Shown in pieces: positions 44,424-47,613 of a DNA stretch of 64,000 nt. The stretch is taken from NCBI RefSeq assembly GCF_051903065.1, contig NZ_CP178438.1; one strand, written 5' to 3'. The notes under the pieces are model-generated. The model ran no database searches. It had not been told where the DNA came from and saw only the letters and a program-made list of their open reading frames with translations. The DNA comes from Escherichia coli. GTDB taxonomy: Bacteria; Pseudomonadota; Gammaproteobacteria; Enterobacterales; Enterobacteriaceae. Each line of letters begins with the position of its first letter. Within the stretch, counting starts at the first letter, position 1. Position numbers and translations under genes: made by a program.

Positions 44424-46823
44424 ATGTCCTTAAAAGGTCTGCGCTTTACGCTGGAGATTGACGGCCAGGAGCCGGACACCTTTGCAGTGGTGAATTTCAG
44501 GTTAATCCAGAACCAGTCTTATCCGTTTGTGATGAGTGTGGATGTTGCCAGCGACTCTTTTATGCAGACGGCGGAGATGCTGCTGGAGAAGAAGGCGACG
44601 CTGGCCATCTGGCAGGGCGCGGTGGCGCAGCGTTATGTCACCGGCGTGGTGGCGGGTTTTGGTATGCAGGAGAACAATGGCTGGCAGATGCGTTATCACC
44701 TGCGTATTGAGCCGCCGTTATGGCGGTGCGGGCTGCGGCAGAACTTCCGTATCTTCCAGCAGCAGGATATCCGGACGATATCGGCCACGTTACTGAACGA
44801 GAACGGCGTCACGGAGTGGACGCCGCTGTTTTATGAGGACCATCCGGCGCGGGAGTTCTGTGTGCAGTACGGGGAGTCGGACCTGGCGTTTCTGGCGCGG
44901 CTGTGGGCGGAGGAGGGAATTTTCTTCTTTGAGCGGTTTGCGGCGGACAGTCCGGAGCAGAAGCTGACGCTGTGCGACGATGTGGCGGGGCTGTCACAGG
45001 CGGGAGAGCTTCCGTTTAACCCGGACACATCGGCAGGAGCGGAGACAGAGTGTGTCAGTATGTTCCGTTATGAGGCGTATGTCCGCCCGTCGTCGGTGCA
45101 GAGCCAGGATTACACGTTTAAGGTGCCGGACTGGCCGGGGATGTATGAGCAGCAGGGTGAGAACCTGAACGGACAGCTGGCGCAGTATGAGATATTTGAT
45201 TATCCGGGAAGGTTCAAGGATGAACAGCACGGTAAGGATTTCACGCTGTACCAGATGGAGAGCCTGCGCAGTGATGCGGAAAAGGCCACAGGGCAGAGTA
45301 ATTCACCGAAGCTGTGGCCGGGAACGCGGTTTACGCTGACGGGGCATCCGCAGAAGATGCTGAACCGTGAATGGCAGGTGGTACAGAGCATTCTGTCAGG
45401 GGACCAGCCGCAGGCGCTGCACGGCAGCCAGGGGAGAGGAACCACGCTGGGAAATCAGTTAGAGGTGATACCGGCGGACCGGACGTGGCGTCCACGGCTG
45501 CAAAGCAAACCGAAGGTGGACGGGCCGCAGAGTGCCATTGTGACCGGGCCGAAGGGTGAGGAGATATTCTGCGACGAACATGGCCGGGTACGGGTGAAGT
45601 TCCACTGGGACCGTTATCACGGGATGACGGAGGCGAGTTCATGCTGGGTGCGGGTATCACAGGCGTGGGCGGGGCCGGGGTTTGGTAACCTGGCGATACC
45701 GCGGGTGGGTCAGGAGGTGATTGTTGACTTCCTGAACGGAGACCCGGACCAGCCGCTGGTCATGGGCCGGACGTACCATGAGGACAACCGTTCGCCGGGG
45801 AGCCTGCCGGGGACGAAGACGCAGATGACGATACGGTCGAAGACCTATAAAGGAAGCGGATTTAACGAGTTGCGCTTTGAGGACGCCACCAGTAATGAGC
45901 AGGTGTATATCCATGCGCAGAAGAACATGGATACGGAGGTGCTCAACGACCGGACAACGGATGTGAAACATGACCATACGGAAACCATCGGTAACGACCA
46001 GAAGATAACGGTGGTGAAGGGTCAGACGGTTCAGGTCGGTACAAAAAAAGAGGGGGGCCACGACCAGAGTATCACGGTGGCGAATGACCGGTGCATCACG
46101 GTACGTAATGACCAGACGCTGCAGGTGACGAATGACCGGACGGTGAGCGTGAGTCACGATGACGGTCTGTACGTAAAAAATGACCGAAAGGTGACGGTGA
46201 AAGGGAAGCAGGAGCATAAGACGACGGGTAACCACATCAGCCTGGTGGAGGGGAAGCACAGCCTGGAGGTGAAGGGGGACCTGGCGGAGAAGGTGAGTGG
46301 CGCGCTGGGGATAAAAGTGGACGGGGATATCGTGCTGGAGAGCAGCAGCCGGATAAGCCTGAAGGTGGGTGGCTCGTTTATCGTCATTCAGCCGGGCGGA
46401 GTGGATATTGCCGGGCCGAAGATAAACCTGAACGGTGGGGGCAGTGCGGGGACACCGGTGGGGACGATGCAGCCGGCGGTGCTGGAGGCTCCGGAGGATG
46501 AGAGCAGTGATGATGGCAGTGATGACTCCGGAGAGGATAGTGGCAATCCCGCAGGGAGTGACGGAGGAGGTGATGGCGGTGACGATGAAGATGATCCTGA
46601 AAAATATACCCTCCAGTTCCATTTTACGGACGATGACGGGATACCGTATTCAGAGACGCAGTATATTGCCTTTTTTGAGGATGGCACACAGACGCGTGGT
46701 GAAACAGACAGAGAGGGATATACAGAAATATTTTATACAGATACAGCACAGGAAATTAAAGTCCAATTGTTATTTTCGGATGCTTTTTATATTGAGCCGG
46801 AGGGGCATTATGGCAGGGAATAA
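44424..46823 (+). CDS. vgrG: T6SS spike protein VgrG with C-terminal extension
   Basis: 799-aa ORF; N-terminus MSLKGLRFTLEIDGQEPDTFAVVNF; RBS GGGAGG; repetitive beta-helix segment; acidic linker then ~70-aa C-terminal domain. Confidence 0.9.
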   Translation: MSLKGLRFTLEIDGQEPDTFAVVNFRLIQNQSYPFVMSVDVASDSFMQTAEMLLEKKATLAIWQGAVAQRYVTGVVAGFGMQENNGWQMRYHLRIEPPLWRCGLRQNFRIFQQQDIRTISATLLNENGVTEWTPLFYEDHPAREFCVQYGESDLAFLARLWAEEGIFFFERFAADSPEQKLTLCDDVAGLSQAGELPFNPDTSAGAETECVSMFRYEAYVRPSSVQSQDYTFKVPDWPGMYEQQGENLNGQLAQYEIFDYPGRFKDEQHGKDFTLYQMESLRSDAEKATGQSNSPKLWPGTRFTLTGHPQKMLNREWQVVQSILSGDQPQALHGSQGRGTTLGNQLEVIPADRTWRPRLQSKPKVDGPQSAIVTGPKGEEIFCDEHGRVRVKFHWDRYHGMTEASSCWVRVSQAWAGPGFGNLAIPRVGQEVIVDFLNGDPDQPLVMGRTYHEDNRSPGSLPGTKTQMTIRSKTYKGSGFNELRFEDATSNEQVYIHAQKNMDTEVLNDRTTDVKHDHTETIGNDQKITVVKGQTVQVGTKKEGGHDQSITVANDRCITVRNDQTLQVTNDRTVSVSHDDGLYVKNDRKVTVKGKQEHKTTGNHISLVEGKHSLEVKGDLAEKVSGALGIKVDGDIVLESSSRISLKVGGSFIVIQPGGVDIAGPKINLNGGGSAGTPVGTMQPAVLEAPEDESSDDGSDDSGEDSGNPAGSDGGGDGGDDEDDPEKYTLQFHFTDDDGIPYSETQYIAFFEDGTQTRGETDREGYTEIFYTDTAQEIKVQLLFSDAFYIEPEGHYGRE

Positions 46824-47613
46824 TAATACTAGTGGGACTTCACAACCCGAGTCGCAAGTATGTGTAGTACCGCAAAAAATTACAAATAAATTTAAAATAA
46901 TGATGAGTAAGGCTTGTAAAGCACAGAAAATGGTTTTATTGAAAAGAGCAGATGATATTATGTCATGGGAGGGGGAACAACAACGAGATTTTATTAAAGT
47001 TTTTGGCCTTAAAGGCGAGGACATTATAAAAATCAGAAAAGTTGGGGAAGATACTGGGAAACGAATGCAAGCGAGACTATTCATAATGGATGGCATCAGA
47101 CGAATAATGACGATTGCAAATGGTTTGACGATCGAAAGCTATAAAGATTATACGAACTGCAATGAATTTGCTGCTTTTATTAGTCCACATCTTGATCCTC
47201 CTTACATTGTAAATATCGGAGCGCATTTTGAATACAGACATGGTATAAAACAGTCGGTTACAGGTAGAGACTCTCATGTAAGTACACTTTGCCATGAAAT
47301 GTCCCATATATTTTGGTATTGGGGTGACAATCAAAAAGGTGGTATGTGGACTCAGGATTATACGGGTATTAATAAGTTCGCAACAAGTAATAAGGATGAA
47401 GTTAGCTATGAGAAACATGTTTCAGTGGCTAATGATCTGGTTACATTGCGTAAAGATCAGTTATTTGAGAATGCATATAATGTTGAAAGATATTTTTATA
47501 TAAAATTAAATGATGAAGATATTGAAGCTCAAGATGAGAATATGTTAGCAAAAAAAGTAGAGGATAAAATAAAAGAGATAGAAAAATGTTTTGATGAGTT
47601 GACGGGGAAATAA
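46810..47613 (+). CDS. HExxH-motif protein (putative zinc-metallopeptidase-like T6SS effector), 267 aa
   Basis: ATG at 46810 overlaps the vgrG stop by 14 nt; HEMSH at residues 162-166 followed by WTQDYTG; no signal peptide; AT-rich; ORF-track entry 46435..47613 is an N-terminal extension. Confidence 0.6.
   Translation: MAGNNNTSGTSQPESQVCVVPQKITNKFKIMMSKACKAQKMVLLKRADDIMSWEGEQQRDFIKVFGLKGEDIIKIRKVGEDTGKRMQARLFIMDGIRRIMTIANGLTIESYKDYTNCNEFAAFISPHLDPPYIVNIGAHFEYRHGIKQSVTGRDSHVSTLCHEMSHIFWYWGDNQKGGMWTQDYTGINKFATSNKDEVSYEKHVSVANDLVTLRKDQLFENAYNVERYFYIKLNDEDIEAQDENMLAKKVEDKIKEIEKCFDELTGK

Follow-up and report, generated by a model that had tools for sequence, protein, structure and literature searches.

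What does a gene encode that begins inside the last codons of a spike gene, and what protects the cell that carries it? The question is raised by a 64,000-nucleotide stretch of Escherichia coli DNA (the window; contig NZ_CP178438.1 of RefSeq assembly GCF_051903065.1). There, an open reading frame (ORF) of 267 codons overlaps the end of vgrG in T6SS-1, a type VI secretion system (T6SS) cluster. Its product, called the effector below, is quite likely a cargo of the T6SS-1 spike. It would be a zinc metalloendopeptidase of the aspzincin (M35) type that lacks a propeptide, with H162, H166 and D183 as zinc ligands and E163 as catalytic base. On this reading the effector is docked on its own VgrG and acts in the periplasm, a propeptide homologue encoded by the next gene protects the producer, and the whole module, low in G+C content (GC), was recombined into vgrG.

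The effector itself is ordinary. Worth following are the possible descent of the immunity protein from a propeptide and the clarification of which toxins are aspzincins and which are gluzincins.

The effector and its family

The effector ORF lies at 46810-47613 on the + strand and encodes 267 amino acid residues followed by a stop codon. It starts within vgrG (tssI), which occupies 44424-46823 on the same strand, ends with the stop codon TAA at 46821-46823 and is intact in the window. The overlap between the two genes is 14 nt (ATGGCAGGGAATAA). The 799-residue vgrG product matches NCBIfam TIGR03361 (E-value (E) 4.8e-180) and the Pfam domains Phage_GPD, Phage_base_V and Gp5_trimer_C. A Shine-Dalgarno-like GGAGGGG can be read within vgrG at 46799-46805 (+), with its GGAGG core 6 nt ahead of the effector ATG. 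The start at 46810 is supported by the conservation of residues 1-30 across homologues.

The effector is predicted to lack both a signal peptide and a propeptide. Its N-terminus (MAGNNNTSGTSQPESQ) is hydrophilic, with a best Kyte-Doolittle mean of 0.81 among the 15-residue segments that start in the first 45 residues, and therefore no signal peptide is expected. The same measure gives 2.85 for the downstream protein. No MIX or other N-terminal T6SS marker was seen by eye in the effector, without a formal search. The GC of the effector ORF is 0.343 and that of the downstream gene 0.288, compared with 0.570 for vgrG and 0.508 for the whole window. Within vgrG, the value is 0.587 up to nt 46600 and already 0.406 across the last ~220 nt.

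A reading made earlier from the sequence alone (the sequence-only reading) had described much of this: an ORF starting inside the vgrG end, no signal peptide and a gene richer in AT than vgrG. It had also pointed to a HEMSH motif followed 14 residues later by WTQDYTG. All of these observations hold. It had further proposed profile searches and structure prediction for the 267-residue protein, and both point in the same direction.

Pfam Aspzincin_M35 is the sole near-significant match of the single effector sequence (independent E 0.0022, 18.9 bits). When 24 members of the family are searched, 15 of them match Aspzincin_M35 (PF14521) at E<=0.1 and two at E<=0.001, the best with an E of 2.4e-6. 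A profile of the family (A2) searched against PDB sequences has just two significant matches, AsaP1 (E 3e-6) and GfMEP (E 2.2e-5), and the alignment covers the block vtGxDSxxxTLxHExSH. A phmmer search of PDB with the single effector sequence returned noise only. The AlphaFold2 model of the effector, built on the 24-sequence alignment, has a predicted local distance difference test score (pLDDT) of 90.4 and a predicted template modelling score (pTM) of 0.88. In a Foldseek search with this model, the four best PDB matches are exactly the four aspzincin entries. Three other Pfam candidates, EAD9, SprT-like and Peptidase_M91, were dismissed, as their matches were short, confined to HExxH and had an E of at least 0.01.

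The active site can be followed residue by residue. The HEMSH codons (H162-E163-M164-S165-H166; 47293-47307, +) encode two predicted zinc ligands and the putative catalytic base, and align with HESSH of GfMEP and HELSH of AsaP1. In GfMEP the motif runs H117-E-S-S-H121...G-G-T-K-D130-Y. In the effector it runs H162-E-M-S-H166...G177-G-M-W-T-Q-D183-Y, and WTQDYTG begins at W180. The stretch from HExxH to the Asp is eight residues longer in the effector, six of them in the loop and the other two being the MW after GG. From this match D183 (codon 47356-47358, +) is expected to hold the zinc as third ligand, and an insertion accounts for the odd spacing. Thus, of the earlier suggestion of an aspzincin-like motif with deviating spacing, the likeness stands, while the spacing no longer speaks against it.

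Further conservation is found around these residues. The family alignment consists of 24 full-length members that are 26-66% identical to the window protein. Its invariant positions include H162, E163, H166, D183, Y223, N224, E226, Y228 and F229. Because the first four are invariant in members so divergent, HEMSH is not a chance motif. T181 is nearly invariant. Y184, the residue after the Asp, is conserved in the close subfamily only, and the third position after the Asp varies between G, D, T and A. Going by alignment and model, the family is a true aspzincin family, with the M35 fold and an Asp as predicted third ligand.

A conserved C-terminal helix motif, NAYNVERYF (N221-F229; 47470-47496, +), is the counterpart of NADNHEYF of AsaP1. 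When NADNHE of AsaP1 is aligned with NAYNVE of the effector, the Asp corresponds to the invariant Y223 and the Glu is kept as E226. In the Lys-specific enzymes the S1' pocket is presumably formed by Asp154 and Glu157 of GfMEP, and by Asp330 and Glu333 of AsaP1. Since this Asp is replaced by an invariant Tyr, the specificity of the effector probably differs from that of the Lys-specific enzymes. We infer from the sequence an active protease with a P1' preference unlike that of the Lys-specific aspzincins.

An M35-like fold could also serve a different purpose. Fungal Pra1 has such a fold and is a zincophore, and the effector might likewise bind zinc without being proteolytic. In the effector family, however, the catalytic Glu163 is invariant along with the ligands. 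Moreover, neither a dedicated immunity gene nor toxic homologues would be expected for a metallophore, and the zincophore explanation is highly improbable.

Toxicity has been demonstrated for a homologue of the proposed protease. In E. coli PAR, four consecutive genes were studied: AKO63_2953 (VgrG), 2954 ("DUF2345"), 2955 ("M35^PAR") and 2956 (immunity) (Commun Biol 2023, PMC10673891). M35^PAR, expressed from pET22b and "targeted to the periplasm", killed E. coli, and co-expression of AKO63_2956 rescued the cells. M35^PAR bound VgrG solely via the AKO63_2954 product.

In the RefSeq record of PAR, a vgrG is flagged "frameshifted; internal stop" and split into ORFs of 531 and 235 residues, which are followed by genes of 262 and 308-312 residues. 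Judging by gene order, this set corresponds to AKO63_2953-2956. Its 262-residue protein, taken as M35^PAR (WP_001556810.1; segment L006 of NZ_CP012379.1, 21631-22419), shares 28% identity with the effector over the full length (E 7e-29). The immunity protein (WP_001556809.1), taken as the validated AKO63_2956, shares 35% identity with the downstream protein of the window (E 2e-28), whose window copy is C-terminally truncated. A further candidate, going by its name, is the "M35-peptidase" of an orphan vgrG module in E. coli BCE049, which was toxic only with a PelB leader (PMC7904677).

The sequence-only reading had thus named the mechanism class rightly when it proposed a metallopeptidase-like T6SS effector. 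It had also called the protein uncharacterised and placed it in no named family, which has to be corrected. The RefSeq (PGAP) name of the exact protein, WP_047624962.1, is "M35 family metalloendopeptidase" or "peptidase M35", and the homologous PAR pair had already been tested.

How widespread is the family? A word-indexed protein search finds nine relatives of the effector, among them an E. coli paralogue (P0006) at 57% identity and one from Buttiauxella, and four relatives of the immunity protein. When 1.84 billion representatives were searched exhaustively with a profile, 49 effector-family clusters emerged. Their named sources are all Enterobacteriaceae: Escherichia, Salmonella, Citrobacter, Franconibacter, Phytobacter, Enterobacter and Buttiauxella. 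Neither the effector nor the immunity protein has a match in NCBIfam, PHROGs or PADLOC. Of 5,426 complete E. coli genomes, 12 contain the 2.1-kb stretch of the window with an identity of >=99.7%, each time on the chromosome. In the same set, the 042-type allele, including that of enteroaggregative E. coli (EAEC) 042, is found in 642 genomes, and the two PAR types in 197 (RS15260) and 84 (RS15240). The effector is therefore a rare allele within an Enterobacteriaceae family of VgrG-borne aspzincin toxins that was already named and partly tested.

The gene order is shared as well. The triad of vgrG, an M35 gene and a gene of ~250-310 codons occurs in the window and at seven loci of Escherichia, Citrobacter and Phytobacter. 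These include the E. coli 042-type locus (PAAR-vgrG-M35-x), two loci in the T6SS-2 cluster of E. coli PAR, and loci of C. freundii, C. koseri and Phytobacter ursingii. At all loci except that of C. freundii, where a gap of ~90 nt is found, the start of the M35 gene overlaps the end of vgrG by 8-14 nt. The third gene of the triad carries no Pfam domain.

The VgrG proteins of these triads fall in two clades, a Gp5_trimer_C type and a T6SS_Vgr plus DUF2345 type. Across both clades, a C-terminal domain of ~75 residues is conserved in six of six VgrGs that precede M35-like genes. In the window it is encoded at 46596-46820 (+; EKYTLQFHFTDDDGIPYSETQYIAFFEDGTQTRGETD...), where the GC is 0.406. Its pattern is E-Y/F-x-[IL]-Q-F-x-F-x-D-x-D-G-[IT]-P-Y...R-Y-I-A-F-F-x-D-G-T...G-x-T-D, and Pfam gives no match in it. 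An orphan VgrG fragment further downstream in the window (48570-48941) lacks the domain, whose conservation is confined to VgrGs with an M35 gene behind them. From this conservation, the domain is a candidate cargo dock for the M35 protein, and by analogy a candidate TTR-like one.

The same domain also ends the PAR "DUF2345" ORF, the one that bound M35^PAR (PMC10673891). Because the 235-residue PAR ORF ends in it, the published VgrG binding may stem from this domain. A conserved VgrG tail thus moves with the cargo across two clades, and it may be what the published "DUF2345" pull-downs measured.

What was described in PAR as a stand-alone DUF2345 gene looks like the C-terminal portion of an interrupted vgrG (L006 19121-21638), which is cut by an in-frame TAG and marked as a pseudogene in RefSeq. 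The DNA between the TAG and the first codon of the "DUF2345" ORF reads on in the same frame. Four other listed genomes with the PAR allele carry the ordinary RefSeq product name for vgrG, in a listing that gives no pseudogene flags.

The immunity gene and the propeptides of M35 zymogens

Directly behind the effector, at 47615-48364 (+), the window encodes a putative immunity protein of 249 residues with an N-terminal signal or anchor segment and a beta-sandwich core. The N-terminus (MKRLAFYNLNYVVLMVFFLCFLPLSIAIA-ID) is strongly hydrophobic and contains a cleavage-like site, AIA-ID. Two cysteines, C125 and C145, are nearly invariant in the immunity family.

The gene contains two T-tracts that vary between genomes. 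The first (47661-47668, +) lies within the signal-peptide codons and has seven, eight or nine T (T7, T8 or T9); the window has T8. The second (48341-48348, +) is T8 in the window and T9 in the intact allele of strain A30. The missing T replaces the conserved last ~36 residues with LLIKY. The out-of-frame remainder (48349-48453, +) encodes VNQILDKDDEQHSVHIRSNEFSINIDGSLVKQPY in the intact 279-residue allele, a motif that is conserved in homologues. Among five copies from otherwise near-identical genomes, only that of A30, with T8 in the first tract and T9 in the second, is an intact 279-residue ORF. The difference between T8 and T9 could be an assembly error or real slipped-strand variation.

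A short immunity gene is also seen at the first vgrG of PAR (203 residues; L006 18026-18637). There, an ORF starting from ~18600 matches the hidden Markov model (HMM) of the immunity family (E 2e-10), which suggests another frameshifted immunity gene.

From where might such an immunity protein have come? The AlphaFold model of the intact protein has a pLDDT of 64.9 overall, with 77-91 in most 10-residue blocks of the core and less than 50 in the loops 111-123 and 142-149. In this model of moderate quality, the protein appears to fold like the propeptide of pro-AsaP1. Since the immunity core is all-beta and 2X3A comprises propeptide and protease in one chain, the matched part should be the propeptide.

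Sequence profiles agree with the model. For comparison, pro-M35 genes were collected by tblastn against a plasmid collection, which supplied those of Aeromonas caviae, Pseudoalteromonas xiamenensis and two Streptomyces; two metagenome contigs were left out as too error-ridden or short. With hhalign, the immunity family aligns with these M35 propeptides at a probability of 85-86% (E 5-6e-6). It aligns at a probability of 98% (E 2.6e-13) with two small genes that follow VgrG-M35 fusions, and these fusion-linked genes in turn align with the propeptides at 94.8% (E 5e-8). Four reversed-sequence controls reach at most 0.3% (E 0.18-0.66). An HMM built from the immunity and fusion-linked proteins was also searched against 1,291 six-frame ORFs. 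Its top matches outside the family are two gammaproteobacterial pro-M35 ORFs (E 9e-4 and 0.014).

Pfam finds nothing for the immunity family, nor for the short immunity protein of a VgrG-M35 fusion. These proteins are unannotated because Pfam has no separate propeptide model, the propeptide being placed in PF02102. A search of PDB sequences with the immunity profile gave weak hemocyanin matches only. Taken together, the homology between the immunity protein and the M35 propeptide is likely real.

If the immunity protein is a propeptide homologue, then the pair amounts to a zymogen spread over two genes, the order of which is reversed. The M35 catalytic domain would have become a T6SS cargo, and the propeptide an exported immunity protein that silences the toxin as in pro-AsaP1. 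The chances that the pair is a zymogen taken apart in this way are about even. Because the gene order is reversed, a simple fission cannot explain the pair.

One sequence difference fits the idea of a partner that has changed together with its protease. In the loop that follows the D-Y-x-G strand, M35 propeptides share a Lys-Arg without exception, and the immunity proteins have C-P-F-[DE] there. It is speculative, but this change would fit a joint change with the replacement of Asp by Tyr in the S1' pocket.

The split zymogen, if true, would be of interest in three respects. It would be a general and previously unremarked route from a secreted protease to a toxin-immunity module. It would also supply a structural template for the mechanism of immunity, in the form of a testable model of cleft occlusion. 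Finally, the S1' Asp-to-Tyr change and the altered Lys-Arg loop would point to a new, co-evolved specificity for some periplasmic target. Searches of the accessible literature for propeptide-derived T6SS immunity, for aspzincin or peptidase M35 together with T6SS, and for AsaP1 together with propeptide found nothing relevant.

Mechanism, history and condition of the locus

The observations can be combined into a sequence of steps. The effector would be made by translation coupled to that of vgrG. Conservation and the pull-downs of the PAR homologue suggest that it binds, without a covalent link, to the ~75-residue tail domain of its own VgrG. It would then be fired into a neighbouring Gram-negative cell and act in the periplasm, as the toxicity of exported homologues indicates, where the substrate may be an envelope protein or peptide. 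The exported downstream protein, a putative free-standing homologue of the M35 zymogen propeptide, would protect the producer. It would most likely sit over the active-site cleft of the effector and inhibit it in the manner of the pro-AsaP1 propeptide.

Several points weigh against this account. For the allele of the window, the evidence consists of sequence and model, and toxicity is known from homologues. AKO63_2955 and AKO63_2956 were equated with RefSeq genes by gene order and the interrupted vgrG, not by a locus-tag table. The Pfam match of the single effector sequence, at 18.9 bits, falls below significance. Only half of the motif GTxDxxYG is kept, as TxD is present and the Tyr-Gly is absent and not conserved. 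Zinc coordination by H162, H166 and D183 is a proposal from the alignment. The catalytic gene comes first and the propeptide-like gene second, which is the reverse of a zymogen. Finally, the immunity gene of the window is truncated by a frameshift, and an insertion sequence (IS), IS903B, lies between tssB and hcp.

The locus is the T6SS-1 cluster beside yafV-ivy-fadE. It begins with tssG-F-E-C-B on the minus strand and continues with IS903B, hcp, vgrG, the M35 gene, a hypothetical gene, a partial vgrG, tla1, tli1a and a tle1-like phospholipase gene. The IS903B (IS5-like) transposase gene occupies 42535-43503 in the divergent tssB-hcp intergenic region. Its insertion may affect the expression of hcp-vgrG-effector or of tssBC.

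How did the module arrive? The partial vgrG (48570-48941, +), a partial VgrG in RefSeq, is an orphan fragment directly before tla1. Protein alignment shows that an earlier vgrG left it behind as its 3' end, with a tail unlike that of the present gene. A direct repeat of 215 nt (46294-46508 and 48580-48794) has 76% identity. In the simplest reading, a low-GC module, consisting of a new vgrG tail plus the effector and immunity genes, entered by recombination in the conserved core of vgrG, and the old tail was stranded before tla1-tli1a-tle1. In this way the incoming module would have displaced an older 3' end of vgrG, the one used by the Tla1/Tli1a/Tle1 module.

The genes for Tla1, Tli1a and a 686-residue Tle1-like phospholipase occupy 48948-52663; Tla1 and Tli1a are assigned by NCBIfam equivalogs and Tle1 by its RefSeq name. 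The M35 module now parts these three genes from an intact cognate VgrG, which puts the loading route of Tle1 in question. Beyond them, between the cargo region and yafV, the stretch 52900-56000 contains degenerate copies of ISAs1 and IS1A and a gene for an "integrating conjugative element protein", according to the RefSeq annotation of an identical locus (L001 15522-18592). This suggests repeated insertion events at the yafV end of the island.

Does the module still work here? The IS903B insertion and the truncated immunity gene make function in this strain uncertain, and the module may be decaying or silent in it. The family would then be functional elsewhere, and the module would be a decaying remnant in a disrupted T6SS-1 locus. 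The transposase gene between tssB and hcp and the shortening of the immunity gene by T8 instead of T9 are consistent with this explanation. So are a vgrG flagged as frameshifted in a RefSeq genome with 100% identity and the indel in one or the other T-tract in four of the five immunity gene copies. However, neither the effector ORF nor vgrG is disrupted in the window, and the effector protein is identical or nearly so across the 12 carrier genomes. Homopolymer indels are also typical of assembly errors. Even the truncated immunity protein retains the whole propeptide-aligned beta-sandwich core (residues ~74-180). Decay is thus rather unlikely as the explanation of what is seen here.

Comparison with known systems

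The closest tested system is M35^PAR. Like the window effector, it has HExxH, GGM-T/S-x-D and NAYNIERYF, follows directly after vgrG, and is accompanied by a homologous immunity gene and the same VgrG tail. Unlike that of the effector, its gene is part of the T6SS-2 locus at metV and follows a DUF2345-type VgrG with an internal stop. M35^PAR has a ~30-residue insertion in its N-terminal half and lacks the C-terminal helix 236-265. The window allele is also the rarer one, compared with the PAR and 042 types.

Another toxin for comparison is the C-terminal domain of VgrG2b from Pseudomonas aeruginosa, which is a gluzincin with a thermolysin-like structure and has Glu983 for its third ligand (Wood et al. 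2019, PMC6899460). It would share several features with the system proposed for the window: a VgrG-linked HExxH zinc peptidase, toxicity in the periplasm only, an exported Cys-containing immunity protein (PA0261 for VgrG2b) encoded downstream, and neutralisation by complex formation. The VgrG2b toxin domain was equated with M35^PAR in PMC10673891, and the effector might on these grounds be placed in the same metallopeptidase family. The toxin domain of VgrG2b is fused to VgrG, however, and is not a cargo. Its third ligand is Glu983, whereas the predicted third ligand of the effector is an Asp in a TxD context, within a fold that matches aspzincins. The VgrG2b domain (6H56) was found neither by the family profile searches of PDB sequences at E<=10 nor by the Foldseek searches. 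Membership in the VgrG2b family can thus be given almost no weight, and the effector family is distinct from the gluzincin domain, contrary to the equation in the literature.

Fused relatives exist within the aspzincin family itself. Two VgrG-M35 fusions are found in Cronobacter sakazakii pESA3 (ESA_RS20965; segment L023 1310-4896) and E. coli 64A:C (segment L027 1358-4681). Their C-terminal ~160 residues belong to the same family as the effector (BLASTP E 2e-14). They share HEMSH and NAYNFERYF, and each fusion is followed by a small gene, the one that aligns with the immunity family as described above. They differ in that the toxin is covalently attached to the spike and the classical GTDD spacing is kept. 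The fusion-linked propeptide-like proteins, of 207 residues in Cronobacter and 150 in E. coli 64A:C, have no signal peptide. These signal-less partners raise the question of where the fused toxins act and are neutralised.

The solved aspzincins GfMEP (1G12), AsaP1 (2X3A) and deuterolysin (1EB6) resemble the effector in the TGxDSxxxTLxHExSH block, the Asp in GG..TxDY and the NA-x-N-x-E-YF helix. The effector differs from them by having neither a signal peptide nor a propeptide in cis; the domain that resembles a propeptide comes from the gene behind it. It also lacks the Tyr-Gly of GTxDxxYG and carries the invariant Tyr223 at the presumed S1' Asp. Delivery is proposed to be by T6SS, compared with Sec or type II secretion for M35 aspzincins. 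Short M35 proteins of ~200 residues with a signal peptide and without a propeptide were also noticed, on plasmids of Ruegeria (L021 1132-1728) and Polaromonas (L022 1123-1734).

The closest solved relative, AsaP1 of Aeromonas, is an extracellular protease that a fish pathogen makes, and it is toxic. The effector might therefore be chiefly anti-eukaryotic, with the downstream gene encoding no more than a folding chaperone or self-inhibitor in the producer. The fusion-linked proteins agree with this, since without a signal peptide their protection would not be periplasmic. In the subfamily of the window, however, the proteins encoded downstream begin with an export or anchor segment. Moreover, homologues of the effector are lethal to E. 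coli from within the periplasm, and the adjoining gene neutralises them. An anti-eukaryotic role is accordingly very unlikely to be the main one.

Propeptide-like inhibitors of proteases that act in trans are known from other classes of enzyme. Examples in MEROPS are I9, which resembles the subtilisin propeptide, and I29, which resembles the cathepsin propeptide. The targets of these inhibitors, and of the intracellular proteinase inhibitor of B. subtilis (3ISY), are serine and cysteine proteases, unlike the M35 metallopeptidase considered here.

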